Below are positions 17,411 through 39,159 of a DNA stretch of 39,650 nucleotides, in pieces. A program made the translations under genes and the position numbers. Numbering within the stretch: position 1 is the first letter of the stretch; each line of letters begins with the position of its first letter. Source of the stretch: an uncultured Candidatus Saccharibacteria bacterium (GTDB lineage: Bacteria; Patescibacteriota; Minisyncoccia; Minisyncoccales; Staskawiczbacteraceae); assembly GCA_964592355.1 (NCBI GenBank), contig CAZQBZ010000002.1, positions 1 to 39,650 of the forward strand. Reading direction: 5' to 3'. The notes beneath the pieces are model-generated. The model made no database searches and was not told the DNA's origin. It saw only the letters and a list, made by a program, of their open reading frames with translations.

Positions 17411-18099
17411 AGCTGTCAATAATAATTCCCGCATATAACGAGGAAAAAACAATAGAAGAAATCATTAAAAGGGTTTCCCGGGTTTTATTGCCTGTCTCCA
17501 AAGAGATAATAGCGGTTGACGATAAGTCAACAGATAAGACTTTGGAAATTTTGGAAGGATTGCGGGATAAATACAGCCTCGTTATTGTCAGGCATTCCGA
17601 AAATTCGGGAAAAGGGTCGGCAATACGATCAGGCCTTAAAAAGGCATCGGGGGATTTTGTTATAATACAGGATGCCGACCTGGAATATAACCCGGAGGAT
17701 TACGAAAAATTATTGAAGCCATTTTTGGAAAATAATGCCCAGGTTGTTTACGGGTCTCGCATCATGGGTGGCAAAAAACGCGGCAAGCTTGCGTTTTATC
17801 TTGGAGGAAGGGGTGTAACCTTAATGACAAATATAATTTGCGGAATAAATATCACTGATGAGCCGACTTGTTATAAGGTTTTTAAAAAGGATTTGTTGGA
17901 TTCGCTTGATTTGCAGTCCAAGGGTTTTGAATTCTGTCCCGAGGTGACGGCTAAAATCGCCAAACGCAAGATTAAAATTTTTGAAGTGCCGATTTCATAC
18001 AATCCCAGGGGAAAGTCAGAGGGCAAAAAGATAAAATGGAGGGATGGATTTGTGGCGATATGGACTTTGTTAAAATGCAGGTTTTGGTATAATAAATAA
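17407..18099 (+). CDS. GT2-family polyprenyl-phosphate glycosyltransferase (DPM1/GtrB-like)
   Basis: LSIIIPAYNEE, AVDDKSTDKT, VIIQDADLEYNPEDY. Soluble, 230 aa. Confidence 0.85.
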   Translation: MKLSIIIPAYNEEKTIEEIIKRVSRVLLPVSKEIIAVDDKSTDKTLEILEGLRDKYSLVIVRHSENSGKGSAIRSGLKKASGDFVIIQDADLEYNPEDYEKLLKPFLENNAQVVYGSRIMGGKKRGKLAFYLGGRGVTLMTNIICGINITDEPTCYKVFKKDLLDSLDLQSKGFEFCPEVTAKIAKRKIKIFEVPISYNPRGKSEGKKIKWRDGFVAIWTLLKCRFWYNK

Positions 18100-20117: not shown

Positions 20118-20167
20118 TAGACGCACGACGTCTGTCAAAAATCCGCCCGAGTTGCGACTTGGCGGGA
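20118..20167. repeat. GC-rich palindromic elements upstream of the third minor pilin gene
   Basis: TAGACGCACGACGTCT (20118-20133) is the reverse complement of the 29000-29015 hairpin. AAAATCCGCCCGAGTTGCGACTTGGCGGGA resembles 14937-14966. Confidence 0.65.
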
Positions 20168-21758: not shown

Positions 21759-24700
21759 ATGCGGAAACATTTTTTAAAAATATTTTTTGGACTTTTCGCG
21801 GCATTCATCGGATGGTTTTTGATGCCCCAGATTGTCGGCGCCCAATTTCCCAGTTTTGAATATTATTCTGAACACGCGTATCCGGACGCTGCAAATTTTT
21901 CAGCTGTAGATACTTATACATCCGTAGTTTTTACAGCCACGGTAACGGATATTTCCGGCGTCAATTCAGTTAACGCCATTATAGAAGACGCTAATGGAAA
22001 CCAAATTGGAGACTGGGAAAGAATGTATGACGACGGATACCACGAGGATATGATTGCCGGAGACAACATTTATGGAGCTTTCTTCAGCCTGGACGGATTA
22101 AATGTAAACGGAACTTATTATCTTACTCTTCGCACAACAGACAATCTTTACAATAGCAGTTACGTAAAAAATCCCGATGGCAGTTATACCGAAGTTTATA
22201 AAAGGGCCGCCCTGGTCACAATGAGGCCGGTTTATTGCAACCCAGAATCGGAATCCGCATCACCCAGGCTTTGTATTAAGATAGACATAACAAACCCAAA
22301 AACAATATCAACCTTCACCGTAACTCCTAATTCAATTGAAGATCCTCAAGCTGTAACCCTTACCGCCACTTTGTCTGTTGCTTTGGCGGGACAGCTGATA
22401 ACTTTTAAGGATTTAAGCACGGGCCAAATTATAGGATATGGCTTCACTGACTCCTCGGGAAGCGTTTCGGTGGGTTATGTGCCCGCTCAAACGGCCACGC
22501 TTCAAGCAGTGTATATGGGCGACGCTTTGCGCAAAATTCCTCCATCATACAAAGAAGCCAGTGTAACAGTTGCGAATGCTGGCTCTTGTCAGACTTCTGG
22601 TTTAGTTATATTGTGTCTTGCCCCGATAGGCCCTTCCAACCCAGACACACTGGAATCTTTAACAACAAATGTATCTGGCAATATTGTTGCAGGCCAGGAG
22701 GTCACATTTACTGCGACTATGTCCAGAAGCGTTGCAAGGGCTGGGCAAACAATTTACTTTAGGGATAATGACACAAATGTGCTTTTGGGTTCGGCGGTTA
22801 CTGACTCGGTCGGGCATGCATTTTTCACATACAGGCCGGCTTTTGCGGCCACTCAGGGCCACAGAATAGACGCAATTTATTCTGGGAATCCATTGCTGGG
22901 GCTTGCCCCTTCTTACAAGAGCGTTATGCTTTTTGTCACAGGTTCTTGCGCTGATTCAAACAGTGCCAGCCTTTGCATTGAGCCGACTGTTTCGAATCCA
23001 AACACCATTTCATCATTTACTCTTTCTGCAACAAACAATGAGATGATGCTTTCTGAATATGTAACTATGACAGCCACCTTGTCTACGCCAATAGCGGGCC
23101 AGACAATTTACTTTGTGGATAGATATACTAATGTCACCATAGGCACAGCCACCACAAATTCATCGGGCGTTGCCACAATCACATATCAGCCGGTCTTTAC
23201 TGGCCCCCACGTTTTGGAAGCCCTATACTTTGGCAACTATCTTTTGGATATGGATCCAAGCTTTAAACAACAAACTCTTACGATAACTAATGAGGGTTAT
23301 TGCTATATCTCGGGACTGGTATTGCTCTGCGAAGAAGGTTTACCGATGTGGACGCAAGCAACAATGACGTTTGAGTTAAGTGATTACGATGTTACCGCCG
23401 AGGACACAATTACTTTAACTGCTACAATGTCGGCTCCGTTGGCGGGAATAAACATAACATTCTCAGACAGCACGGCGGGCATAACAATCGGAACCAGACA
23501 GACCAACAGTCAGGGGGTTGCGTCAATCACCTATCAAATTCCAACGACAACCGTCACTTCAACCCATGTGATGAGAGCCGTAAACGGCAGCAATGCCCAG
23601 ACATTAAACCAAAACTTAAATATCACAGCCTTGCCATTAATAGGGTCTCTTGTTCTGGCTCCAACTTCAGTCACTGCCGGAGAATCTGTTTTGATGACGG
23701 CCACAATGGCTCCGGCAATGCAGAATGTATCAGTCACTTTTTATGATGTCACTGCCGGAACGACAATTGGCACCTCGACAACCAATTCATCTGGAGTAGC
23801 TACGCTTACATACAATACCCCATTGAGCCTTACCAATGGCAACCATACAATCAGGGCCCAGAGAAACGACAGCCTCAGGGAAGGAACGGCTACCCTTGTG
23901 GTATCAGCAGTGTGCCAGGTGTCTGGTTCCGCAACACTTTGTTTGCAGGGACCGCCTGCGATAGGAAATCAAAACACGATTTCGTCACTTAATTTATCAA
24001 GCAGTACTATTAATATATCAGAATGGGTAACGATGACGGCCACTCTTTCTACTCCAATTCCGGGACAAACAATCTATTTTATTGACAGAAATGCCAGCCA
24101 GATAGGCACGGCTGTTACTAATTCAGACGGAATAGCTACATATTCATTTCAGCCTGCATTTACCGGACCCCACACAATAGAAGCCCTTTATAACGGCAGT
24201 TACTTGTATGGCCTTGCTCCGTCGTATAAACAGCAAACACTTACCGTAAACGCCAATGCGAATTGCCAGATTTCCGGCTCAACTTTGTTGTGCATAACTG
24301 CCACTCCCGCAATCAATAATTCCACAATGGCCACCAGCTTAAGCGTGCCGTCTGTGCAAGCCGAGGGCACCGTAACAGTGATAGCCCAAATGTCTGCCGC
24401 ATTGCCAGGCATAATGATTACATTTAGAGATGTTACAAGCAGTACGGCCTTAGGCACAGTGCCAACTGATGCAACAGGCAGAGCATCAGTTAATTACAGA
24501 ATTCCAACGGGTACGGCCTCGGGCACTCATACAATTACCGCCGTTAACGCAAGCAATGGTGAAACTGACACGGTTTATCTGGAAATTTCCGACCTTCCGC
24601 TTATAGGTTCCATAACATTAAATCCGACGACAATATCAGCCGGAGAATCCACGACAGTCACAGCCGTTACCGCGCCAGTTCTTGCCGATGTGTCAATTAC

Positions 24701-27548
24701 CTTTTTTGACGATACGGCTGCCACAACAATTGGCTCTGCCACCACAAATTCATCGGGCGTTGCCACAATCACATACAACACCCCAACAAGCCTCACCAAT
24801 GGCAACCATACAATCAGGGCCCAGAGAAACGACAGCCTCAGGGAGGCAACCGCCACTCTTGTGGTGTCAGCATTGTGCCAAAATTCAAACTCGGCAACGC
24901 TTTGTTTGCAAACCCCGCCAGCAATAGGAAACCAAAATACCTTGTCGTTTCAGCTTAGCCAGTCCACGATTACTATTGCAGAATGGGTGACAATGACAGC
25001 TGCTTTATCAAGTCCAATTTCAGGCCAAACAATCTATTTTATGGACAGATACAATAATACTCAGATAGGCACTGCTATAACCGATTCTGATGGAGCTGTT
25101 TCATATTCATTCCAGCCAAACTTTACAGGAACGCATGTGATAGAGGCCACATTTAACGGAAACTATATGTATGACCTTGCACCATCATATAAGCAACAAA
25201 ACCTTACCGTAAATGCCAATGCGAATTGCCAGATTTCCGGCTCTACAATGTTATGCCAATCGGCTGCTCCTACAATCAATAACTCCACAATGAGTTTTAC
25301 ATTAAGCGTGCCGTCTGTGCAAGCCGAGGGCACAGTAACTCTTATTGCTCAGATGTCAAGCTCAATAGCGGGGTCGGTTATCACATTTTCTGACACAACA
25401 TCGGGCGTAACCATAGGCACCAGGCAAACCGATTCAACAGGCAGGGCAACAATTGACTATACAATTCCATCCGGAACATCAACAGGAACCCATGTGATGA
25501 GGGCGGTCAATGCCAATAACGGTGAGACCAAAACAGCTAATTTGGAAATTTCCGACCTTCCGCTTATAGGATCTTTGGTGCTTAATCCCACATCAATTAC
25601 TGCCGGAGAATCTGTTACCGTCACTGCCACAATGGCTCCGGTGCTGGCAGATGTGTCAGTTACTTTCTATGACGACACGGCTGCCACAACAATTGGCACT
25701 GCAACCACCAATTCATCCGGTGTTGCCACAGTTACATATAACACCCCCACAAGCCTTGCTGATGGCAACCACACAATCAGGGCCCAGAGAAACGACAGCC
25801 TCAGGGAGGCAACCGCCACTTTGGCAGTTTCAGGACTGTGTTTGACTTCAAACTCCGCAAGACTGTGTTTGTCCAGTCCGGTGACAGCGTCAAATCCGGA
25901 AACCATATCTTCATTTACACTTAGCTCTTCAACAATAACCCTTTCCGATTGGGTGACTTTAACAGCTCAATTGTCCAGCGCGGTCGCGAATGAAACAATA
26001 ACATTTATTGACAGGACAACCGGAACCACTTGGGGCACCGCTAATACCGACTCAAGCGGAGAAGCCGTTTTCTTGTTCCAACCAAACTATACAGGCACTC
26101 GCACTATTGAGGCCGTATATACAGGAAAATATTTGTTAAATTTGTCGCCCTCATACAAACAGCAAAGCCTTACAATAAACGCGCAAGACGGATGTCAGAT
26201 AAACGGTTCAACAATGCTTTGCATAGACCCGCCGGAAGTGGGATATCCTTCGGTAAGTGAATTTTCAGCCAGCCCATTTTTCGTGGAGGCGGGCTCACAG
26301 ACAACACTTACTGCCACATTATCCATACCTATCCCATATCTTACGATCACATTTACCGACACCACGCTATCAACAACAATAGGCACGGCTATCACTAATA
26401 AATCCGGAACCGCCACCATAAATTACGTGATTCCTTATGACGCCCCCACAGGCACCCGCAATCTTACAGCTTCATTCCTGACGGCTTCAAAAACGGCTAC
26501 AATGCAAGTTTTGGGTCCGACAATAGAAGGCTGGCCATACAGAAAATCCATTACGATAAGCACAGCAAATGCAGACGAAACATTTAATGATTTTCCGCTG
26601 TTGGTGAAGATAACGAATGACGCGGATATAGGCACCTATTCAATGGCATCTGGTGACGATATCAGGTTTGCCGATGCTTCGGGCAATGCTTTGCCTTATG
26701 AAAGAGAATCTTGGTCTGGTGGCGGTGGTAATCCGGCTTCTGGAATATTCTGGGTAAGGGTGCCAAGCATAAGCGCAGACAACGACACCACAATTTATGT
26801 TTATTATGGCAATGCAAATGCCCAGAATGTAAACTCGGCCAAATTTGTATGGGAGTCAAATTATAAAGCGGTTTTCCATTTTGGTTCTGGATCAACATTT
26901 TCAACCCTGGATTCTACCGCAAATAACAATCACGCCACAAACATTTCAGATGTGACCGCCTATTCTTCAGGAAAAGTGGGGGCTGCAGGATATTTTTCCG
27001 GTTCAAACTATTTGACGGTTCCAAATATCTCTTCGCTTGTTAGCGCCCAGAAGTTTACGGTTTCGGCATTTGTGTATCCGCAGACACTTGTTTCAACGGC
27101 CTGGTTCTCAAAGGGAACCGCCGGAAGCTATACAGACAATATTTTATTCTGTCTGGACGGAGAGCCAAGATATGGAGTTAAAAACGGGCTTGATAACATG
27201 GCAGTCGCCCCTGCGCTTACAACAAACAGCTGGTATGGATTGTCTGTAGTGTTTGATGGCTCACAGACAGGCAATGATAACAGGCTTAAAATATATCAAA
27301 ACGCAGTGCAACAATTAGCCGACTTTATCATAGACAACTACACGGTGCCGGCTACAACATCTGCCAATACCGGCCTTGAATACATCGGCACGCATGGGGT
27401 AACCGCCAGCTCGTGGAGATGGCTGGGATATATTGACGAATTCCGCATTTCCAGCGTTGCAAGGTCAGCGGCTTACAATAAATTTATGTACAACAACATA
27501 AACAGCGCCACAAACGAGCTTACTTTTGGACTGCATTCAACCCCGTAG
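21759..27548 (+). CDS. Giant secreted repeat protein: N-terminal domain, about 13 Ig-like modules, C-terminal DUF2341 and LamG (concanavalin A-like lectin) domains. Candidate pilus-associated adhesin.
   Basis: Signal peptide MRKHFLKIFFGLFAAFIGWFLMPQIVGA. Repeated V.LTATLS..(A/P)GQTIYF.D....IGTA.T...G.A modules. DUF2341-like WPYRKSITIS...DIRFADASGNALPYERESW...IYVYYGN. LamG-like KAVFHF...GYIDEFRISSVARS. Confidence 0.8.
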   Translation: MRKHFLKIFFGLFAAFIGWFLMPQIVGAQFPSFEYYSEHAYPDAANFSAVDTYTSVVFTATVTDISGVNSVNAIIEDANGNQIGDWERMYDDGYHEDMIAGDNIYGAFFSLDGLNVNGTYYLTLRTTDNLYNSSYVKNPDGSYTEVYKRAALVTMRPVYCNPESESASPRLCIKIDITNPKTISTFTVTPNSIEDPQAVTLTATLSVALAGQLITFKDLSTGQIIGYGFTDSSGSVSVGYVPAQTATLQAVYMGDALRKIPPSYKEASVTVANAGSCQTSGLVILCLAPIGPSNPDTLESLTTNVSGNIVAGQEVTFTATMSRSVARAGQTIYFRDNDTNVLLGSAVTDSVGHAFFTYRPAFAATQGHRIDAIYSGNPLLGLAPSYKSVMLFVTGSCADSNSASLCIEPTVSNPNTISSFTLSATNNEMMLSEYVTMTATLSTPIAGQTIYFVDRYTNVTIGTATTNSSGVATITYQPVFTGPHVLEALYFGNYLLDMDPSFKQQTLTITNEGYCYISGLVLLCEEGLPMWTQATMTFELSDYDVTAEDTITLTATMSAPLAGINITFSDSTAGITIGTRQTNSQGVASITYQIPTTTVTSTHVMRAVNGSNAQTLNQNLNITALPLIGSLVLAPTSVTAGESVLMTATMAPAMQNVSVTFYDVTAGTTIGTSTTNSSGVATLTYNTPLSLTNGNHTIRAQRNDSLREGTATLVVSAVCQVSGSATLCLQGPPAIGNQNTISSLNLSSSTINISEWVTMTATLSTPIPGQTIYFIDRNASQIGTAVTNSDGIATYSFQPAFTGPHTIEALYNGSYLYGLAPSYKQQTLTVNANANCQISGSTLLCITATPAINNSTMATSLSVPSVQAEGTVTVIAQMSAALPGIMITFRDVTSSTALGTVPTDATGRASVNYRIPTGTASGTHTITAVNASNGETDTVYLEISDLPLIGSITLNPTTISAGESTTVTAVTAPVLADVSITFFDDTAATTIGSATTNSSGVATITYNTPTSLTNGNHTIRAQRNDSLREATATLVVSALCQNSNSATLCLQTPPAIGNQNTLSFQLSQSTITIAEWVTMTAALSSPISGQTIYFMDRYNNTQIGTAITDSDGAVSYSFQPNFTGTHVIEATFNGNYMYDLAPSYKQQNLTVNANANCQISGSTMLCQSAAPTINNSTMSFTLSVPSVQAEGTVTLIAQMSSSIAGSVITFSDTTSGVTIGTRQTDSTGRATIDYTIPSGTSTGTHVMRAVNANNGETKTANLEISDLPLIGSLVLNPTSITAGESVTVTATMAPVLADVSVTFYDDTAATTIGTATTNSSGVATVTYNTPTSLADGNHTIRAQRNDSLREATATLAVSGLCLTSNSARLCLSSPVTASNPETISSFTLSSSTITLSDWVTLTAQLSSAVANETITFIDRTTGTTWGTANTDSSGEAVFLFQPNYTGTRTIEAVYTGKYLLNLSPSYKQQSLTINAQDGCQINGSTMLCIDPPEVGYPSVSEFSASPFFVEAGSQTTLTATLSIPIPYLTITFTDTTLSTTIGTAITNKSGTATINYVIPYDAPTGTRNLTASFLTASKTATMQVLGPTIEGWPYRKSITISTANADETFNDFPLLVKITNDADIGTYSMASGDDIRFADASGNALPYERESWSGGGGNPASGIFWVRVPSISADNDTTIYVYYGNANAQNVNSAKFVWESNYKAVFHFGSGSTFSTLDSTANNNHATNISDVTAYSSGKVGAAGYFSGSNYLTVPNISSLVSAQKFTVSAFVYPQTLVSTAWFSKGTAGSYTDNILFCLDGEPRYGVKNGLDNMAVAPALTTNSWYGLSVVFDGSQTGNDNRLKIYQNAVQQLADFIIDNYTVPATTSANTGLEYIGTHGVTASSWRWLGYIDEFRISSVARSAAYNKFMYNNINSATNELTFGLHSTP
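22947..25838 (+). repeat. Three in-frame tandem super-repeats (966, 963 and 963 bp) inside the giant gene
   Basis: Unit boundaries at the Cys codons 22947, 23913, 24876 and 25839. GGCAACCA(T/C)ACAATCAGGGCCCAGAGAAACGACAGCCTCAGGGA recurs at 23838, 24801 and 25764, exactly 963 bp apart, with one C/T difference in the third copy. Confidence 0.9.
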
Positions 27549-27581: not shown

Positions 27582-27611
27582 TTGCCATCTTTAACAACAA
27601 CAATGTATAAT
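27582..27611 (+). promoter_or_regulatory. Sigma70-like promoter candidate
   Basis: TTGCCA (27582-27587), 18 nt, TATAAT (27606-27611). Confidence 0.45.
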
Positions 27612-27661
27612 AATATAATTAAGCGTTGTTCCCTGCCAATGGGAGCAGAATAAATAAAAAT

Positions 27662-28063
27662 ATGGATAAAAAAACAATTATTTTAATAGTAGTAGTTTTA
27701 ATTTTAATTTTAGCGGCAGTGGGCGGTTTGGTTTTTGTATTAATGAATAAAAATTCGGACGGTTCGTTGCCAGGGCCAAAGGTTTCTGAAAACGGAGAGA
27801 TTATATACGAGCAGGTTCCCCTTGAAGAGGCCGAGGCCCAGGTAAACAAAGATTTTCCTGATACATTAACTGGCACGCTTGAATTTGGCGCAAACGACAA
27901 GGCAACCCTAAAAACATCAACCAAAACATATACATTCACCCCGGACCAGCCCAAAGGGATTTATGAGTCTTTTGGTGTTGAAGAAGGCGACCGTGTAACC
28001 GTAAAATGCAAAATTTTGGATAACAATACAATTCAACTATTTTCAATGGACGTCGCAAAATAA
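27662..28063 (+). CDS. Small membrane-anchored hypothetical protein
   Basis: MDKKTIILIVVVLILILAAVGGLVFVL signal anchor. The ORF track starts at TTG 27626; I prefer the ATG at 27662. Confidence 0.6.
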   Translation: MDKKTIILIVVVLILILAAVGGLVFVLMNKNSDGSLPGPKVSENGEIIYEQVPLEEAEAQVNKDFPDTLTGTLEFGANDKATLKTSTKTYTFTPDQPKGIYESFGVEEGDRVTVKCKILDNNTIQLFSMDVAK

Positions 28064-28087
28064 ACCTAAAGCGTCATTAAAAACATT

Positions 28088-28858
28088 ATGAAAAACTATT
28101 TTTTATTCATTTTCGCGGCCTTGGTTCTCTTTGTGGCTCCGCAATTTGCATCAGCCGCCAACTACTTTGTGGGTGTCACAATAGCCTCGGGACAGGCTCC
28201 CGGATACCCAAGCGGAACAACAAACACTAATTGGTGTTTGCCGGCGATAAGCCCACAAACCACTGGCTACGGTACTCGATTCTACATTAGAAGTGGAACA
28301 TCCAATCTTACACCCGTAAGTCCGACGACCAATCCGATTGATTTGGCAGGTCCTGCCTGCGCAGGCGACACTGTGTGGAGCGGTTTGTTTAACCTTACCA
28401 GCGGAACAACCTACAATGCCTATTTTAATGCTCAATCTTATGCTTATTGTCCTGGAGTAATGGATTATGACGAGTGTCAAATTTGGTGCGACTACTCTTG
28501 TTGGGTTTCTTGGGACACTCCAGGGCAGAATAAAAGCTGTGCCGAAGTGTGCGCTCATTATGGAACTACGCCAAGAATTTATACAAGCAATTATCCCGTT
28601 CTTTTCCGTCCGGCAGCCCATAACTGCAGAACTGTTGCAAAACTCTTGGGTGGCACTTGCTCAAGCTGTACAACCAATGGCACCTATGATTATTACAACC
28701 CCACCACCTTTGCCTGTACTACAACAACAAGCACCCATAATACGGCTGACGCAAACGGCAACGCAACATTGGGATCGGACTTAGTTAGAGTTTGCGCCTG
28801 TAATGTTTTAAACAGTACAGCAGCATCTTTCTCTTTTAATTTTACCCCTACATTTTAA
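28088..28858 (+). CDS. Secreted Cys-rich, Thr/Asn-rich protein, paralog A
   Basis: Signal peptide MKNYFLFIFAALVLFVAPQFASA|AN. 14 Cys and 7 N-X-S/T sequons. No recognised family. Confidence 0.75.
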   Translation: MKNYFLFIFAALVLFVAPQFASAANYFVGVTIASGQAPGYPSGTTNTNWCLPAISPQTTGYGTRFYIRSGTSNLTPVSPTTNPIDLAGPACAGDTVWSGLFNLTSGTTYNAYFNAQSYAYCPGVMDYDECQIWCDYSCWVSWDTPGQNKSCAEVCAHYGTTPRIYTSNYPVLFRPAAHNCRTVAKLLGGTCSSCTTNGTYDYYNPTTFACTTTTSTHNTADANGNATLGSDLVRVCACNVLNSTAASFSFNFTPTF

Positions 28859-28903
28859 AATTTTAAATTCGCCCGTGCCGCGGCTCGGGCGGGTTATGTA
28901 TAA

Positions 28904-28942
28904 AAAAGCCCCTTTCAAGATTTTATCCTTAAAGGGGCTTTT
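28904..28942. terminator. Bidirectional rho-independent terminator between the convergent paralogs
   Basis: AAAAGCCCCTTT (28904-28915) pairs with AAAGGGGCTTTT (28931-28942). Flanking A and T runs provide a U-tract on both strands. Confidence 0.75.
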
Positions 28943-28967
28943 TAGAAAGTATTTTCCGCGAGAACTT

Positions 28968-29016
28968 CCGCCGACGTCGTGCGTCGGCGGACTTTCGATA
29001 GACGTCGTGCGTCTAT
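28968..29016. repeat. Two copies of the GACGTCGTGCGTC hairpin repeat
   Basis: CCGCCGACG-TCGTG-CGTCGGCGG (28968-28990) and ATAGACG-TCGTG-CGTCTAT (28998-29016). Confidence 0.7.
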
Positions 29017-29019
29017 TTT

Positions 29020-29796
29020 TTAGAAGGTTGGAGTGAAGTTAAAGGAAAAAGACGCCGCCGTGCTATTTAACAAATTGCAGGCACAGACTCTAACAACATC
29101 AGATCCTAAAGTAGCGTTGCCGTTTGCGTCAGCCGTATTATGGGTGCTTGTTGTTGTAGTACAGGCAAAGGTGGTGGGGTTGTAATAATCATAGGTGCCA
29201 TTGGTTGTACAGCTTGAGCAAGTGCCACCCAAAAGACGTGACACTATTGAACAATTTTTAGATGTGGACATGCCGAGTATCGGATAGTTACTGGTGTACA
29301 TCTGGGGGGTTGTCCCATAACGAGCGCACACTTCAGCACAGCTTTTGTTCTGTCCTGGAGTATCCCAAGCCGCCCAACAAATAGGACCATTATACTCATA
29401 GCTACCATTATAATAATACGCTTGTGTTCCCGGGCAATAAGCATAAGATTGAGCGTTAAAATAGGCATTGTAGGTTGTTCCGCTGGTAAGGTTGAATAGG
29501 CCAGACCAGACTGTATCTCCTGAACAAGCAGGACCTGCCAAGTCAACAGGATTGGTTGTCGGGCTCACTGGAGTAAGGTTTGTTGTTCCGCTTCTGATGT
29601 AGAATCGGGTCCCCCAACTAGTGGTCTCTGGGCTTATCGCCGGCAAACACCAATTAGTGTTTGTTGTTCCGCTTGGGTATCCGGGAGCCTGTCCCGAGGC
29701 TATTGTGACACCCACAAAGTAGTTGGCGGCTGATGCAAATTGCGGAGCCACAAAGAGAACCAAGGCCGCGAAAATGAATAAAAAATAGTTTTTCAT
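29020..29796 (-). CDS. Secreted Cys-rich, Thr/Asn-rich protein, paralog B
   Basis: 258 aa. The signal peptide and first 56 aa are identical to paralog A. 12 Cys. The central blocks are replaced. Confidence 0.75.
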   Translation of the reverse strand: MKNYFLFIFAALVLFVAPQFASAANYFVGVTIASGQAPGYPSGTTNTNWCLPAISPETTSWGTRFYIRSGTTNLTPVSPTTNPVDLAGPACSGDTVWSGLFNLTSGTTYNAYFNAQSYAYCPGTQAYYYNGSYEYNGPICWAAWDTPGQNKSCAEVCARYGTTPQMYTSNYPILGMSTSKNCSIVSRLLGGTCSSCTTNGTYDYYNPTTFACTTTTSTHNTADANGNATLGSDVVRVCACNLLNSTAASFSFNFTPTF

Positions 29797-29845
29797 AATG
29801 TTTTTAATGATGCTTTAGGTTTATTTTGCGACGTCAATAAAAAAT

Positions 29846-29887
29846 CTCGGGAGCCGCGGCTTTTCCGCCGACGTCGGGCGTCGGCGG
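29846..29887. repeat. GC-rich palindromic repeats flanking the right arm
   Basis: CTCGGGAGCCGCGGC shares GAGCCGCGGC with the reverse complement of 28877-28886. CCGCCGACGTCGGGCGTCGGCGG (29865-29887) differs from 28968-28990 by one loop base. Confidence 0.65.
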
Positions 29888-29953
29888 GTTTGTCTTGGCA
29901 AGCCAAATAGGTTGTGTTAAACTAAGTCTAACCAGGCTAAATTAAAATATAAT

Positions 29954-30430
29954 ATGGATAAACAAACAATAAATAAATTTTGGCTGCCCGCGCTGATTTT
30001 TGCGGTTGTGGCAGTATTGCTCTATGCCTTCTTTTTTATTGATTTTTGGGGATCAGGCAAGGAAGCAGACTTAAACACCTTGACCGACCAGCAAATAATC
30101 GAAATTCTTAAAACAAATGCGGATGTTGCAGATTACATTTCAAGAAATCCAGATTTTGGCATTCAGAGCAAAGAAATTTTAACAAAGGATTCTATATTAA
30201 AGGGTCAAAATCAAAACACATTTCAGCCTGTGTATATAGGCTTGGAGCTTGAAGATACCAGGTATTTGAAAGTTCAGCTGATGAACGCTTCCGGCAGAGA
30301 GGGATATATCACCGTTATCGACGGCAACGACAGCAGTGTGCAAAAAGCTTTTGGCATGCTTTTGTTGCAAATGTCTCAACAGGAAATTGAGCAACAACTC
30401 CAGCAAAGCAGTCAAAGTCCCGCCCAATAG
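29954..30430 (+). CDS. Membrane-anchored hypothetical protein
   Basis: N-terminal TM (FWLPALIFAVVAVLLYAFFFI) and a Gln-rich C-terminus. Confidence 0.6.
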   Translation: MDKQTINKFWLPALIFAVVAVLLYAFFFIDFWGSGKEADLNTLTDQQIIEILKTNADVADYISRNPDFGIQSKEILTKDSILKGQNQNTFQPVYIGLELEDTRYLKVQLMNASGREGYITVIDGNDSSVQKAFGMLLLQMSQQEIEQQLQQSSQSPAQ

Positions 30431-34161: not shown

Positions 34162-37100
34162 ATGTTTTTCATATTTAATAAAAAATCCAATAAATTAGAT
34201 ATAAAAAATCGAGATGGAGGAGTGATTTTTTATGCAAAAAAGATAGAAAGAAACAAAAAGGAAAAGTGGAGAAGAAGGCTTTTAGTTGAATTGGAAGCAG
34301 AAGAATATGCAAAAATAGATTTTAAATACTTTAAAAAAAATCAGCGAATTTTTTATAAAGCAAAACATTTTTTTCTGTGGGCGACAAGACTTTTGACGCC
34401 GGATTTTTTGATAGGGCACCCGAATCTTTTTGATAATCTAAAAATACTTTTTAGAGATTCTGAATTTAGGCCACTTAGAATGGCCATGGCAGGCTGGCTG
34501 ATTTTTTCGTTATTAGCCGGGTCTGCCGGATTTTATGCCTTTTTCAGCGCTCCAAAAGTTATGGCTTCTGAAAATTGGTATAATACATCTTGGCAATATA
34601 GAAGAGCTCTGACGATAGATCATACAAAGGTTGGGAATGGCACAGAAAACCAAATAAATTTCCCCGTGCTAGTGTCTTTATCTGGACTATCTAATATAAA
34701 CGTAAACGGAACGGATGTCAGATTTACCTCTTCGGATGGAACCACTGAATTACCTAGAGAGATTGAGAGATATTCTTCAGGAGAACTCGTTGCTTGGGTA
34801 AAAGTGCCAAATGTTTCTTATACAGAAGATACAGTTATTTATATATACTATGGAAACTCCTTGGCAACAGAGCCATCTGCAAGCTCCACGTATGGTAGTC
34901 AGAATGTTTGGGACTCTAATTTTAAGGCAGTTTACCATTTTAAAGAAACTGGGACCAACCCAACAGTTTATGACTCAACATCAAATGGAATAAATAGTTC
35001 GTCTCAAACCTGGACCCCCGGTTCAGGAAAAATTGACGGAGGGGCTAGTCTAAACGGTTCATCTCAATACATAACCTTACCAACCGCGACAGCCCTTAAT
35101 ATAACGGGAAATTTAACAATAGAGGCATATGTGAAGACATCAAGTTATACAGGAAATGCTCATATTGTTGGAGGGTATAATCCAAGTTCACCCAATAATG
35201 GCTATGCTATTTCTGTGACAGATACTAGTGGGTATCAAGGCAAGCTGGCATATTGGAATGGGTCTGCTTGGAGGTATGGCAGTACGGTTGTTTCTGATGG
35301 TAATTGGCATGATGTTGCTGTTACTCTTAATGGCACAACTTTGCAATTTTATTTAGATGGTTCACCTGATGGGGCTTCTCAGGCGGGGGCTGCACCTAAT
35401 TCTTATCTGGGCAGTAGGTATTTGGGAAATATAAGCAATAGGGGATATGTTAACGGAATTATAGATGAAATCAGGATATCTAATATGGCTCGTTCGGCTG
35501 GCTGGAGAAAGACTAGTTATAACAATCAAAACTCCCCGACAACTTTTCTTGCAGTTGGAAATGAAGAAAATTGTTTTCCATTAACTCCGATAAACTCTTC
35601 TCCTGTTAATTCTGCCGTGAATCAATTTACAGAAGTAACCCTTTCTGCTTCCGATTTCTCTTCGCCCGTTGGGTTAACACACTTTGCGTCTCAGTGGCAG
35701 ATAACCACAACCTCTGGAAATTATGGCACAGCTGTTTTTGATGCGGTTACAACCTCTCCGGACTTAACATCAAAATCAGTGTCTTTGACGCCAGGCACAA
35801 TATATTATTGGCACGTAAGATACCAAGATAGCAATGGTTATTGGTCTAATTATTCTTCGGAAACCTCGTTTAAGACCTCATATCTTCCAACAGTTCCAAT
35901 AAACAGTTCTCCTACCAACGGAGCGCTTAAACAAAATTTAACGCCAATTTTGTCGGCTTCAGATTTTTCTGATGCGGATTCTGGATCTTCACAATCCGCA
36001 TCGCAATGGCAAGTGAGGCTTGTTACAGACCCAACTTATTCTTTGCCAATTTATGACTCGGGAACAGACACTGTAAATTTAAATTCAATATCAATTCCAG
36101 AAGGAATATTGTCTGATAATACAACCTATATGTGGCGGGTTCGCTACAGGGATGACGTGTCTATGTGGAGCGAATATTCCACAGAAACAGTTTTTTCAAC
36201 AGGTGTCGTTCCCAGCGTAATCCTATCTGTCGGAGCCACAGAATATGCTTCTGGGGATATGGCCAAATTAACTGTTCAAGTTCAAAACGCTGATACAAGT
36301 CCGATAAATAATGCTACTTGCAAAATAAATATTTATGGCCCGTCAAATAATAAATTGGTTAGCGAAGGGGAAATGACATATTTGGCCGACTCAAACGGAC
36401 TTTATTATTATAATTATCAAACGCCATCTACCGACGGAGTTTATATTTATGACGTTACAGCAGTTTATGCGGGGCATACGGTTTATACCTCTCATACTTT
36501 TCATGTTTCTGGGGCTTTAAATACAATCGCTACCATAAATACAAATTTAAATACGGCAAGCACAAATATAAATAGTATTGGCGCTAAGGTTGACACAATA
36601 GACGGAAGCGTTGCTAATATAAATACAAACTTGAACACCGCAAATAACAAGCTTGATTCAATAAGCTCGACATTGACGGCCGCCAATTATCAGACAAAAG
36701 CGGGGATATTAAATAATCAAAGCGTTCTTCAAGTTGGCAAGACAATAAAAATAGAATATTCGGCCCATAGTGGTTTATCCGGCGACGGAATACCTCATAT
36801 TTATGTTTATGATCCAGATAATAATGCCTGTATGAATGGTGCGAATATGACAGAAATGGACAGTTCTGGAATTTATCACTACAACTTAACTATAAATGAA
36901 TCTGGGCCTTATGGTTGTTATGGCACCGGATATTTCACGATTGTAGTTTCTGAAAGCACATATAATACTCATGGCAATATGACTTTATATGTAGCTGAAA
37001 ACGACATTGAATCGATCGGTTCAAATGTTTCTAGTATTAAAACCACAGTTGAGAGTTCAAAAAATAATATAGATGCATTAATAGGCGCTTTTGTTGTAAC

Positions 37101-39159
37101 CCAGTCCTCTGTCAGCGATACAACCCCAACATCAACATCTTTTTCAACCTCGCTTACAAATTCAATCAATGATTTTTATAAAAATTCTGTTTTAACTTTT
37201 ACGTCAGGAAATTTGAATGGTCAAGTGAGGAGAATTTCTGGATATAACGCAACCACAAAAGAAATCACGTTGGATCCGTCATTGTCTATTCCTCCTTCTG
37301 ATGGGGATGTCTTTACCATCGTAAAGCAAAATGTTTATGTTGAAGAGCAGGCTTCAGATATTCAAAGCGATATAGATTTAGTTAAGAGCGATGTTTCTTA
37401 TATAAAAGACAAAGTTGATGTTATTAACTCAACATTGCAAACAGTTGATTCTAATTTAAGTTCGTTACAGGCGGTTGTAAACACAATAAGAACATCACAA
37501 CAGTCTCCTTATGGCGCAAAATTATCTGATATTCATCAGGTTGAATCTGGGGGAGAATATAGAGCAAAATTATCCTTGGTTAACTACGAAAGCAACCCAG
37601 TTGATGCAGCTTCTAATCCGATAATCACAATATATGACTCATCAAGGTCTATTATTGTTAATGGTGCGAATATGACGAAGATTTCTACTGGAATTTATGA
37701 ATATGTTTACGGATTATCAGATTCTGCTTCATCTGGAATATGGGAAGCGGTCGTGACAACTGCAGTAGGGCTATCTCAAAACCAACAGCTTAATGATTAT
37801 TTCAACGTCTCAGGATCTCCCGCTCAGGTTTTGATAAATTCTGTCTCCGGTTCTATCCCCGATATATCAGCTGATGTAAAAATAACAAATGAGGGTGCCG
37901 GAGATTATGAATATCATTATGAATGGTGCGTTGTTAGCAATCAATCTGAGAAGTGCGGTCTTGCAAGCAATGTTTATTATGCAACAGCCTCAAAGCTTAT
38001 ACAGATGGGTCAAGATTTTATTACAGATCTATCGGCGACGGTTTCAAGTCCGGGAACCTATTGGTTTAAATTAGTCGTTTATTATGGAACCCAATCATCG
38101 GGAGCTTCAAGGCAATTTAATTTATCGGGTGGCGGGTCTTCTTCTTCGGGCGTATCAGCTGGTGGAATGCCCTTGGTCGTCAACCAGGAAAATCTTGATA
38201 TAAACGGATTAGAAACACAGGTTGGGGACTTGCAAAAAACAATTAAAGATCAAACAAATCTAATTTCCAGAGTTCTAGAGGTCTTGGGTATTTTAAAACC
38301 AGGCATTCAGGAGTTGCTTTCGGTTGGCGGGACACAGACAGATAATGTTAAAGACCTACAAAACAAATTAGCTGACTTACAGGCAATCTCATCTTCTGTC
38401 AAAAAAATAGTTGAAAATAACAATGCTTCTCCCGTGGTTCAGACTTATATGAAATTTAATTCAGTTGTCATAAGTTTTTTAATCGTCAATCCTGCGCAAA
38501 TAGAACAAACGGTCAACTTTAAATCACTTCTTCCAACGGAGGTAAAGTTCTCTGATATATTAAAGCATGATGGCCTTAATATTGATTATGATACAAATAG
38601 TAATGCTTATTTTGTATACGGAAGTGTTGTTTTGGGACCAAAAGAAAGCATAACAAAATCCGTTGAAATAAATGATATATGGGTTTTTAGTCAAGAAGAT
38701 TTAGATTCAGTAAAGAACCAGGCTAATACCTTTTTAGTGGCGCTTAAAGATACACAATATTATTCTCAAGGAATTTTATTGCAAGCCGACATAGAAAAAA
38801 CAATTTCTAAAATAGAAGAATCTCAAAAACAGAGTTATATCTCTCCCCAGGATCATATTTTAGCCTATAGAAGCAATAAGTCATTAATTGAAGAAGTTGA
38901 TAAGGATTTAGATCAATTAAAGAGCTTGGTTGTTCAATCTGGGGCGTCTCAGGGACTTTTGGGGAAAATTGGCGGGATACAAACATTTGCGACCTGGGGA
39001 ATTATATTGGCAGTAGTTTTCAGTTTTGCTTTGATGTGTGCCATAGTTTTTTCTATGTGGAGATATCAAGTCGTGCTTGCTTCTCAAGTTATAAATAGCA
39101 ATAAGCGAGTTTTATCAGGCATGAAACCCAAGGCGAGAAGAAAAATATATGCCAAATAG
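34162..39159 (+). CDS. Giant membrane-anchored surface protein: Lys-rich cytoplasmic N-terminus, TM, DUF2341, LamG, two FN3-like repeats, alternating beta-sandwich and coiled-coil modules, C-terminal TM
   Basis: TM MAMAGWLIFSLLAGSAGFYAFF. DUF2341-like WQYRRALTIDH...DVRFTSSDGTTELPREIE...IYIYYGN. LamG-like KAVYHF...GIIDEIRISNMARS. Repeats ...SQWQ(I/V)...Y(Y/M)W(H/R)VRY(Q/R)D...WS(N/E)YS(S/T)ET.F(K/S)T. C-terminal TM WGIILAVVFSFALMCAIVFSMW. An internal ATG at 34480 is a possible alternative start. Confidence 0.8.
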   Translation: MFFIFNKKSNKLDIKNRDGGVIFYAKKIERNKKEKWRRRLLVELEAEEYAKIDFKYFKKNQRIFYKAKHFFLWATRLLTPDFLIGHPNLFDNLKILFRDSEFRPLRMAMAGWLIFSLLAGSAGFYAFFSAPKVMASENWYNTSWQYRRALTIDHTKVGNGTENQINFPVLVSLSGLSNINVNGTDVRFTSSDGTTELPREIERYSSGELVAWVKVPNVSYTEDTVIYIYYGNSLATEPSASSTYGSQNVWDSNFKAVYHFKETGTNPTVYDSTSNGINSSSQTWTPGSGKIDGGASLNGSSQYITLPTATALNITGNLTIEAYVKTSSYTGNAHIVGGYNPSSPNNGYAISVTDTSGYQGKLAYWNGSAWRYGSTVVSDGNWHDVAVTLNGTTLQFYLDGSPDGASQAGAAPNSYLGSRYLGNISNRGYVNGIIDEIRISNMARSAGWRKTSYNNQNSPTTFLAVGNEENCFPLTPINSSPVNSAVNQFTEVTLSASDFSSPVGLTHFASQWQITTTSGNYGTAVFDAVTTSPDLTSKSVSLTPGTIYYWHVRYQDSNGYWSNYSSETSFKTSYLPTVPINSSPTNGALKQNLTPILSASDFSDADSGSSQSASQWQVRLVTDPTYSLPIYDSGTDTVNLNSISIPEGILSDNTTYMWRVRYRDDVSMWSEYSTETVFSTGVVPSVILSVGATEYASGDMAKLTVQVQNADTSPINNATCKINIYGPSNNKLVSEGEMTYLADSNGLYYYNYQTPSTDGVYIYDVTAVYAGHTVYTSHTFHVSGALNTIATINTNLNTASTNINSIGAKVDTIDGSVANINTNLNTANNKLDSISSTLTAANYQTKAGILNNQSVLQVGKTIKIEYSAHSGLSGDGIPHIYVYDPDNNACMNGANMTEMDSSGIYHYNLTINESGPYGCYGTGYFTIVVSESTYNTHGNMTLYVAENDIESIGSNVSSIKTTVESSKNNIDALIGAFVVTQSSVSDTTPTSTSFSTSLTNSINDFYKNSVLTFTSGNLNGQVRRISGYNATTKEITLDPSLSIPPSDGDVFTIVKQNVYVEEQASDIQSDIDLVKSDVSYIKDKVDVINSTLQTVDSNLSSLQAVVNTIRTSQQSPYGAKLSDIHQVESGGEYRAKLSLVNYESNPVDAASNPIITIYDSSRSIIVNGANMTKISTGIYEYVYGLSDSASSGIWEAVVTTAVGLSQNQQLNDYFNVSGSPAQVLINSVSGSIPDISADVKITNEGAGDYEYHYEWCVVSNQSEKCGLASNVYYATASKLIQMGQDFITDLSATVSSPGTYWFKLVVYYGTQSSGASRQFNLSGGGSSSSGVSAGGMPLVVNQENLDINGLETQVGDLQKTIKDQTNLISRVLEVLGILKPGIQELLSVGGTQTDNVKDLQNKLADLQAISSSVKKIVENNNASPVVQTYMKFNSVVISFLIVNPAQIEQTVNFKSLLPTEVKFSDILKHDGLNIDYDTNSNAYFVYGSVVLGPKESITKSVEINDIWVFSQEDLDSVKNQANTFLVALKDTQYYSQGILLQADIEKTISKIEESQKQSYISPQDHILAYRSNKSLIEEVDKDLDQLKSLVVQSGASQGLLGKIGGIQTFATWGIILAVVFSFALMCAIVFSMWRYQVVLASQVINSNKRVLSGMKPKARRKIYAK

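Follow-up and report, generated by a model that had tools for sequence, protein, structure and literature searches.

In Campylobacter fetus, nested inversion among the sapA homologues reportedly depends on RecA (work of Dworkin, Tu and Blaser). Transcription there is confined to the sap homologue that lies next to the single promoter, on its downstream side, and homologues are exchanged frequently (PMC3887049). Gene-altering programmed inversions, a class that includes the G segment of phage Mu and the C segment of P1, the shufflons of R64 and the hsdS invertons, have been catalogued by Milman, Yelin and Kishony 2023 (PMC9881135); in the part of that article drawn on here, four attributes predict such inversions, i.e., long repeats, a short distance between the coding sequences, a tail-to-tail arrangement if the repeats lie near the 5' end, and one copy without the stretch from the transcription start to the first repeat. 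Pilin genes are inverted at the tfpQ/tfpI locus of Moraxella bovis and M. lacunata (Marrs et al. 1988, as cited in PMC11868660). Here, we describe a pair of convergent genes (A and B) for Cys-rich secreted proteins in a 39,650-nt stretch of DNA (contig CAZQBZ010000002.1 of assembly GCA_964592355.1, positions 1 to 39,650; hereafter the window) from a Staskawiczbacteria-like bacterium of the Candidate Phyla Radiation (CPR, Patescibacteria). On balance, we regard it as probable that the A/B locus is a two-slot invertible cassette, that is, a gene-altering switch operated by homologous recombination; by analogy, its behaviour would be closest to that of the C. fetus sap system and also close to that of gene-altering inversions.

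The two genes face each other across a 161-bp spacer (28859-29019) and share two inverted repeats, IR1 over the 5' parts and IR2 within the coding sequences. The elements of the locus, together with the gene p133 in front of it and the promoter of p133, are as follows (ORF, open reading frame; related contigs from other samples carry L-numbers and related proteins carry P-numbers):

27582-27619, forward strand: sigma-70-like promoter upstream of p133, two overlapping matches, each 11/12
27662-28063, forward strand: p133, gene of a small protein anchored in the membrane by its N-terminus; the final 15 nt of the gene lie within IR1
28049-28255, forward strand: left copy of IR1, 207 bp, from the base-by-base alignment of the arms; partner 29629-29835
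28088-28858, forward strand: gene A (slot A, alpha body; identical to P0001), ORF call, 256 aa with 14 Cys and 7 N-X-S/T sequons
28256-28646, forward strand: variable body of A, with the junction patch (codons 57-63), var1 (28451-28507) and var2 (28562-28645)
28647-28764, forward strand: left copy of IR2, 118 bp, exact inverted repeat of 29114-29231; crossover tract of contig L021
28765-28858, forward strand: C-terminal 31 codons of A, peptide conserved, synonymous sites saturated relative to B
28859-29019, no strand: spacer with four hairpins, the central one at 28903-28943
29020-29796, reverse strand: gene B (slot B, beta body; identical to P0024), ORF call, 258 aa with 12 Cys and 9 sequons
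29114-29231, reverse strand: right copy of IR2, exact partner of 28647-28764
29629-29835, reverse strand: right copy of IR1; at this point arm B opens with a p133 relic (3' end)

A preliminary description, made from the letters of the window, had proposed two facing arms around a hairpin-filled 161-bp spacer, a 5' tract of about 207 bp that matches except at 28073 and is made up of 39 bp upstream of the start (with 15 nt of the upstream gene) and 56 codons, and a second identical tract at 28647-28764; the arm alignment confirmed all of these coordinates, and folding confirmed the hairpins. The sole mismatch in IR1 is a G at 28073 in arm A against an A at the partner position 29811 in arm B, and the longest perfect run is 182 bp. 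IR1 holds the final 15 nt of p133 (GACGTCGCAAAATAA), the 24-nt intergenic stretch that separates p133 from the slot-A gene, and codons 1-56; its reach upstream of the start codon is thus 39 bp. The outer end of arm B coincides with that of IR1, which leaves this arm without p133 and without the conserved p133 promoter. The spacer folds into four hairpins on each strand (z-scores -6.6 and -6.8), and its central hairpin (28903-28943), whose stem is preceded by an A-run and followed by a U-run, has the appearance of a bidirectional terminator that could act in either orientation. No structured RNA was matched at the Rfam gathering score in the spacer or the upstream regions.

All four attributes from the part of PMC9881135 drawn on here are present at the A/B locus. 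As in gene-altering inversions, the repeats lie inside two opposed coding sequences 161 bp apart, the arrangement is tail-to-tail with IR1 over codons 1-56, arm B is without p133 and its conserved promoter, and rearranged forms occur in near-identical backgrounds (L009 and L021) as well as between lineages (L005). Such inversions usually, although not obligatorily, have a recombinase gene in or near them, whereas none is nearby here, and their second copy is normally truncated, whereas here it is complete and looks like a gene of its own because the repeat covers the start codon. Neither the A/B family nor CPR was found among the families listed as enriched in the part of PMC9881135 drawn on here, and the terms 'Patescibacteria' and 'Candidate Phyla' do not occur in its main text. 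In the shufflon and Gin/Hin/Cin systems, all repeats share a short core site and there is a dedicated invertase; at the A/B locus, inspection of the arm alignment shows no evident similarity between IR1 and IR2, and no invertase gene was found among the window ORFs of at least 120 aa. With C. fetus sap, the locus shares full-length homologues for a secreted surface protein, a long 5' tract that extends upstream of the start codon, one promoter for the adjoining copy, more than one nested inversion, and the lack of a dedicated invertase. The sap system has about eight homologues, and its promoter is itself part of the segment that inverts, with divergent genes on either side; the A/B locus has convergent genes and a promoter (27582-27619) outside the invertible segment, and it is the bodies and the spacer that flip; the A/B protein family is unrelated to that of sap, and dependence on RecA is, for the A/B locus, what we infer. 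As happens at the Moraxella locus, inversion inside the coding sequence would here bring alternative variable 3' ends into line with an unchanging 5' part and promoter, in a setting related to type IV pili; the Moraxella target is the major type IV pilin, with the dedicated invertase Piv adjacent, whereas A and B have a Sec-type signal (read by eye), no prepilin motif and no invertase. Homologous recombination of an expressed gene with unexpressed homologous cassettes, as proposed for the A/B locus, is a feature of Neisseria pilE/pilS and Borrelia vlsE, and so are conserved tracts flanking variable ones and a surface- or pilus-associated target. These two systems work by unidirectional, non-reciprocal gene conversion from many partial cassettes; the A/B locus has two complete cassettes, and its reciprocal inversion loses no information.

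The divergence between A and B varies along the gene. Synonymous (dS) and nonsynonymous (dN) divergence was estimated by the Nei-Gojobori method, segment by segment (pS, proportion of synonymous differences):

Codons 1-56: dS 0, dN 0
Codons 57-99: dS 2.0, dN 0.10
Codons 100-121: dS 0.49, dN 0
Codons 122-140 (var1): dS saturated, dN 0.88
Codons 141-158: dS 0.52, dN 0.05
Codons 159-186 (var2): dS saturated, dN 0.39
Codons 187-226: dS 0.036, dN 0
Codons 227-256: dS saturated (pS 0.98), dN 0.045, two amino-acid changes

This mosaic of identical and saturated tracts exceeds chance: when codon identity was permuted among the 214 same-residue codons able to vary synonymously, none of 100,000 shuffles reached the observed identical-codon runs of 56 and 39. 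The last segment agrees with the earlier claim that the final 31 or so codons encode nearly the same peptide with divergent synonymous sites. Just inside IR1, positions 28243-28275 (codons 53-63 of A, AISPQTTGYGT) form a third hypervariable patch; contig L009, whose alpha body is identical elsewhere, reads ALSPYTTGYGT here, a version found in no other allele.

A segment-wise comparison was made of eleven gene copies drawn from seven loci. In codons 1-56, the two copies within a genome differ by 0%, 7%, 2% and 7% in the four genomes that carry both (window, L005, L006 and L010), and genomes differ from each other by 8-27%; long identical 5' runs were found in all four of these two-copy genomes. 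The 5' tract thus evolves in concert within each genome. The variable regions, by contrast with this tract, group by allele class across genomes and not by genome:

Alpha class: window A, L003, L009, L006-A, L010-A, P0022, P0023
Beta class: window B, L005-A, L012-A
Gamma class: L005-B, L006-B, L023 partner
Delta class: L010-B, P0025-27

P0008 appears to be a further type, and the slot-A copy of L005 (L5_A) is itself a mosaic. Within each class, the variable regions are under purifying selection (dN/dS 0.05-0.23); diversifying selection was considered for them and rejected on these values, i.e., they are not hypermutating loops. The classes are old, discrete and conserved isoforms, the alpha class with an extra cysteine pair (C130 and C134) and the beta class with two extra sequons (N130 and N181), differences that could matter at the protein surface. 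The view of the preliminary description that A and B are old paralogues under purifying selection, patched by gene conversion, is therefore supported by the concerted 5' tract and by the cross-genome classes. The single-nucleotide polymorphism at 28073 does not track the flank (L009 has the B-side flank and yet G, L021 has an alpha body and yet A), which hints at conversion or multiple exchanges within IR1.

Rearranged forms of the locus were observed in contigs from other samples. L021 (983 nt) differs at 2 of 983 positions from an in-silico flip of 28765-29113: it starts exactly at IR1 and runs through the A body to IR2, then through the C-terminal 31 codons of B with all of B's synonymous variants, the spacer as its reverse complement, and the end of A in reverse. 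We take it to be the product of an inversion between the internal repeats; a mis-join is unlikely because, at 118 bp, the repeat would fit within a single read of typical length (150 nt) or a k-mer of 127-141 nt, both of them assumed values. The second rearranged contig, L009 (1,502 nt), has a LigA-p158 flank identical to the B side of the window at 855 of 857 nt, followed by IR1 and then by the body of A, which agrees with A at the approximately 120 sites that discriminate A from B, except for the 33-nt variant patch, and ends inside IR2; from its sequence, it is read as the IR1-flipped configuration in essentially the same strain. In the diverged L005, the spacer with its hairpin order and the bodies run opposite to the window when the flanks are aligned (score 79 for the reverse alignment vs 13 for the forward one), and its assembly is unambiguous because the perfect runs in its IR1 are only 45-62 nt; the hairpin order of the spacer is also reversed in L021. 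Old classes were found in either slot: the beta body occupies slot B in the window and slot A in L005 and L012, and the delta body occupies slot A in L023 and slot B in L024, L025 and L026. These contigs bear out the earlier proposal that crossovers in the identical tracts invert the interval, and L021 is a chimeric variant of the kind that the preliminary description had suggested looking for; the exact sequence of the reciprocal chimera (B body with A C-terminus) was absent from the protein collection. Since two rearrangements occur in backgrounds that differ by at most about 0.2%, inversion would seem to be fast relative to point mutation. A structure of this kind should interrupt assembly, and several contigs do break at the repeats (L001, L006, L024, L025 and L026 inside IR1, L009 inside IR2, and L021 at the IR1 edge). 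In L022 (876-1013), from an L006-type relative, the slot-A end of the spacer is the reverse complement of the slot-B end in L006 and L023, possibly a further inverted state in another lineage.

The window arrangement was recovered from two other samples (L002, identical at 100%, and L001, different at 2 of 3,184 nt), and a convergent pair between p133 and p158-LigA is also present in the diverged L005, L006, L010, L023 and L029 (L006 and L011 are the same contig, as are L010 and L026; L024 and L025 are from the same strain as L010). Wherever the upstream region of arm B was covered in these relatives (L005, L006, L010 and L029), the arm opens with the 3' relic of p133 (GTCGCAAAATAA). Because the same relic marks the slot-B boundary across lineages, the pair is read as stemming from a single ancient duplication, whose outer boundary is shared by every lineage examined there. 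A single, syntenic copy occurs in some close relatives (L003/L004 and L020) and in more distant ones (L007, L013-L017 and L027/L028). In L003 (6771-6778) and L020 (4771-4778), p158 starts 6 nt after the Cys-rich gene, and these loci therefore lack approximately 1.1 kb, comprising the spacer, the second cassette and the intergenic DNA before the divergent gene. The preliminary description had named single-copy relatives as a finding that would speak against it; some relatives do carry one copy, but at least five other lineages keep the pair. Among the GTDB representative genomes, the only match was a Candidatus Staskawiczbacteria metagenome-assembled genome. In L027 (3278-3538) and L028 (1802-2053), a GIY-YIG endonuclease gene lies between p158 and ligA, and in the single-copy L003 a Y1 (IS200/RAYT-like) transposase gene is located downstream of ftsW.

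As the locus is reconstructed here, an old inverted duplication would have made the second copy, starting 39 bp upstream of the start codon and including the last 15 nt of p133. Gene conversion between the arms would keep IR1 (207 bp) alike, and in this strain IR2 (118 bp) too, and heteroduplex repair during exchanges would explain the identity of the repeats. A crossover within IR1 or IR2 would flip the intervening DNA: a flip at IR1 would exchange the alpha and beta bodies between slot A, behind the p133 promoter, and the promoter-less slot B, whereas a flip at IR2 would swap only the C-terminal 31 codons and the spacer, with the bidirectional terminator working in either orientation. Slot A would then be the expression slot and slot B, presumably silent, the storage slot, and the cell would switch the isoform that it displays. 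RecA-type homologous recombination is favoured over a site-specific event, because no recombinase gene is nearby, the two crossover tracts show no evident similarity in the arm alignment, and the repeats are identical over 118-207 bp. Only in the window strain is IR2 long, and just two residues change when it flips; for these reasons IR2 is probably a recent conversion tract used opportunistically and not a designed site. Switching is presumably frequent within a population; the protein may be a pilus- or surface-associated recognition factor, and the cell is probably able to alternate between versions of this surface protein.

Of the other explanations, the one that survives best, although we rate it as rather unlikely, is that A and B are ordinary paralogues, always both expressed and perhaps partners, with conversion and inversion neutral and no selected switching. 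Both ORFs are intact in every lineage, start codons included, and the spacer terminator works on both strands, which fits expression of both genes equally well; no recombinase gene is nearby; the IR2 flip changes two residues only, so that not every inversion has a phenotype; single-copy relatives exist, and those close to the window strain (L003/L004 and L020) mean that the pair is dispensable; and the variable regions are under purifying selection within classes (dN/dS 0.05-0.23). Several of these points weigh against an invertible switch as such, and so do the following: the orientations were established from contigs and not from reads, and their coexistence in one population is presumed; the join in L009 over a 182-bp perfect run, unspannable by short reads, rests on the read pairing of the assembler; some of the class swaps between slots could be due to gene conversion or horizontal exchange; and the lack of a slot-B promoter refers to the sigma-70 consensus, from which CPR promoters may differ. 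Constant expression of both paralogues does not sit well, however, with an arm B that starts at IR1 without p133, its promoter or any detectable promoter of its own, with the persistence of the convergent layout and of the 5' tract, homogenised in each genome tested (window, L005, L006 and L010), where copies are only about 63% identical to A, with an architecture that fits the attributes predicting programmed inversions, or with two independent rearrangements in near-identical backgrounds.

A site-specific invertase encoded elsewhere and acting on a short core site within the repeats (shufflon- or Gin/Hin-like), with the long identity being secondary, is quite unlikely in our estimation. According to PMC9881135, a recombinase acts in most of the gene-altering inversions characterised, and some of the loci have none nearby; the genome extends beyond the 39.6 kb of the window, and the polymorphism at 28073 travels with the body in L009, as it would after a crossover near the outer edge of IR1. 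Opposed to this are the absence of a serine or tyrosine recombinase domain from every ORF of at least 120 aa in the window and of any called recombinase gene from the two-copy loci L005, L006 and L024, the lack of evident similarity between IR1 and IR2 (by inspection of the arm alignment, no motif comparison having been run), and the length of the identical repeats (118-207 bp), which is typical of substrates of homologous recombination. GACGTC, which occurs at the outer edge of IR1 and in the hairpins described below, was considered as a recombination site and rejected, as the edge reads GAGGTC, AGGTC or CTGTC in L006, L010 and L029. That the identical tracts and the recombinants are artefacts of metagenome assembly, from collapsed or mis-joined repeats, is highly improbable: several contigs do stop inside or at the edge of the repeats and IR1 is too long for short reads to span, but the window arrangement recurs in two other samples (L001 and L002), the same layout is found in at least five diverged lineages, the imperfect repeats of L005 (perfect runs of at most 62 nt) were assembled unambiguously and the interval is still inverted, and the junction of L021 crosses only 118 bp, so that this alternative, which the preliminary description had itself raised, can be set aside.

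The invertible cassette favoured here would carry a new protein family in a class of mechanism that is familiar. Both proteins begin with MKNYFLFIFAALVLFVAPQFASA followed by ANY, which is read by eye as a Sec-type signal peptide. The N_methyl domain of Pfam is present in five neighbouring genes and absent from A and B, and they were rejected as type IV pilins for lack of this prepilin motif. In Pfam, the best E-value for A/B was 0.042 ('ET module'), which is below the cutoff and was disregarded; no match was found in NCBIfam, PHROGs or PADLOC, and the best E-value against PDB sequences (0.1) was not significant. An AlphaFold2 (AF2) model of A, built with 21 homologues (predicted local distance difference test 84, predicted template modelling score 0.79), consists of an N-terminal beta-sandwich and a mixed C-terminal domain, and Foldseek searches with it against PDB and BFVD returned nothing below E = 0.1, the best partial matches being Ig/Fn3 domains. 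The earlier statement that the proteins match no recognised family has thus held at the level of families, PDB sequences and folds. Among 1.84 billion representatives, the family comprises 72 clusters at 50% identity, nearly all members being stand-alone proteins of 210-290 aa; a phage origin was discarded, as there are no relatives in IMG/VR. In the remote relative P0091 (336 aa), the part matching the first ~120 profile positions, i.e., the signal peptide and the N-terminal domain, is fused to a Fib_succ_major domain, which suggests that the N-terminal beta-sandwich is a separable module. The Pam pilins of CPR, which form donor-strand-exchange pili, bear a general likeness only, by description (Sec signal, Ig-like strands and paired cysteines); PamA and PamB are two-domain proteins with a beta-sandwich and an open barrel (bioRxiv 10.64898/2026.03.03.709456).

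The window consists of a type IV pilus cluster with nearly all genes on the forward strand, and the A/B locus lies at its distal end. The cluster opens with PilM, a PilN-like protein, PilO, PilB, PilT, PilC and two pilins, continues with an oligosaccharyltransferase of the AglB/STT3 type, a GT2 glycosyltransferase, the prepilin peptidase and four minor pilins, and is followed by a 1929-aa Big_3_5/DUF2341 protein, p133, the A/B pair, p158, LigA and FtsW; FtsW is followed by another giant protein, in which DUF2341 and LamG domains occur. The first of the giant secreted proteins (21759-27548, 1929 aa) has eleven Big_3_5 repeats in addition to DUF2341, and the second (34162-39159) has 1665 aa. The synteny of the first, adhesin-like one with the Cys-rich gene extends to relatives of only 38-48% identity, a conservation that suggests a functional unit of the two. 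Likewise, p133 is located upstream of the Cys-rich gene wherever the upstream flank was covered, including these distant relatives; it belongs to no Pfam, NCBIfam, PHROGs or PADLOC family. Further features of the neighbourhood are the following:

14975-17410: gene of an archaeal-type AglB/STT3 oligosaccharyltransferase, inside the type IV pilus cluster
17407-18099: gene of a GT2 glycosyltransferase, inside the type IV pilus cluster
29864-29888, forward strand: GC-rich hairpin like repetitive extragenic palindromic (REP) elements, motif GACGTCGGGCGTC, between slot B and p158
29954-30430, forward strand: p158, gene of a membrane-anchored protein, divergent from slot B; ligA is next

Sequon density per 100 aa is 2.7-3.5 in A/B, 2.1 in the pilins and 2.2 in the giant protein, compared with 0-0.6 in the cytoplasmic PilB, PilT and LigA. 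Because the secreted proteins are richer in sequons and the cluster holds AglB/STT3 and GT2, the pilus and surface proteins of this CPR bacterium may well be N-glycosylated.

The two overlapping matches that make up the presumed promoter of the p133/slot-A operon (27582-27619) are TTGCCA-18-TATAAT and TTAACA-17-TATAAT; across six lineages the -10 box TATAAT is invariant, and the -35 box is kept as TTGCCA, TTTACA or TTGCGT. Between this promoter and the start codon of p133, a hairpin (27628-27646; GTTCCC, a 7-nt loop and GGGAGC) has stems conserved in five lineages and a variable loop, and it may be a regulatory element of the 5' untranslated region. No promoter-like site was found between slot B and the divergent p158 in a scan for the sigma-70 consensus only. 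The fold just upstream of slot B, where an insulating terminator was looked for, is a hairpin with no adjacent U-run. The motif GACGTCGNGCGTC of the REP-like GC-rich hairpins has four intergenic copies (20120-20132, 28973-28985, 29001-29013 and 29870-29882) against 0.01 expected by chance, three of the four in or beside the invertible locus. The similar first codons of p133 and p158 raised the possibility that they are paralogues, which was rejected (BLASTP E = 0.19).

CPR bacteria are ultra-small and mostly uncultured, many are thought to be attached to hosts, and type IV pili are believed to be central to this attachment. To our knowledge, little has been described of surface variation in CPR beyond diversity-generating retroelements, and no inversion-based variation system in CPR was found reported in the literature searched. 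The A/B locus offers a concrete and testable candidate, with two cassettes, two pairs of repeats and four junctions whose sequences can be predicted and then counted in existing read sets, and a new secreted family whose confidently predicted fold is unmatched, which is tied by synteny to a giant adhesin-like protein and which, in the window, adjoins a pilus cluster with a gene for an AglB-type oligosaccharyltransferase. It is also a natural example of crossover and conversion maintaining perfect repeats beside synonymously saturated sequence, and a warning to assemblers and annotators that contig breaks at such a locus reflect real structure. Only tentatively, and with the odds somewhat against it, do we suggest the fuller reading in which the locus is a reversible switch for phase or antigenic variation in a CPR episymbiont that works without a dedicated recombinase, acting on a pilus-associated, N-glycosylated, disulfide-rich protein with a role in host recognition or phage resistance, the isoforms coming from a population pool of at least four ancient allele classes. 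If true, no system of programmed variation would have been described in CPR bacteria before this switch, which would also point to a concrete determinant of host specificity.

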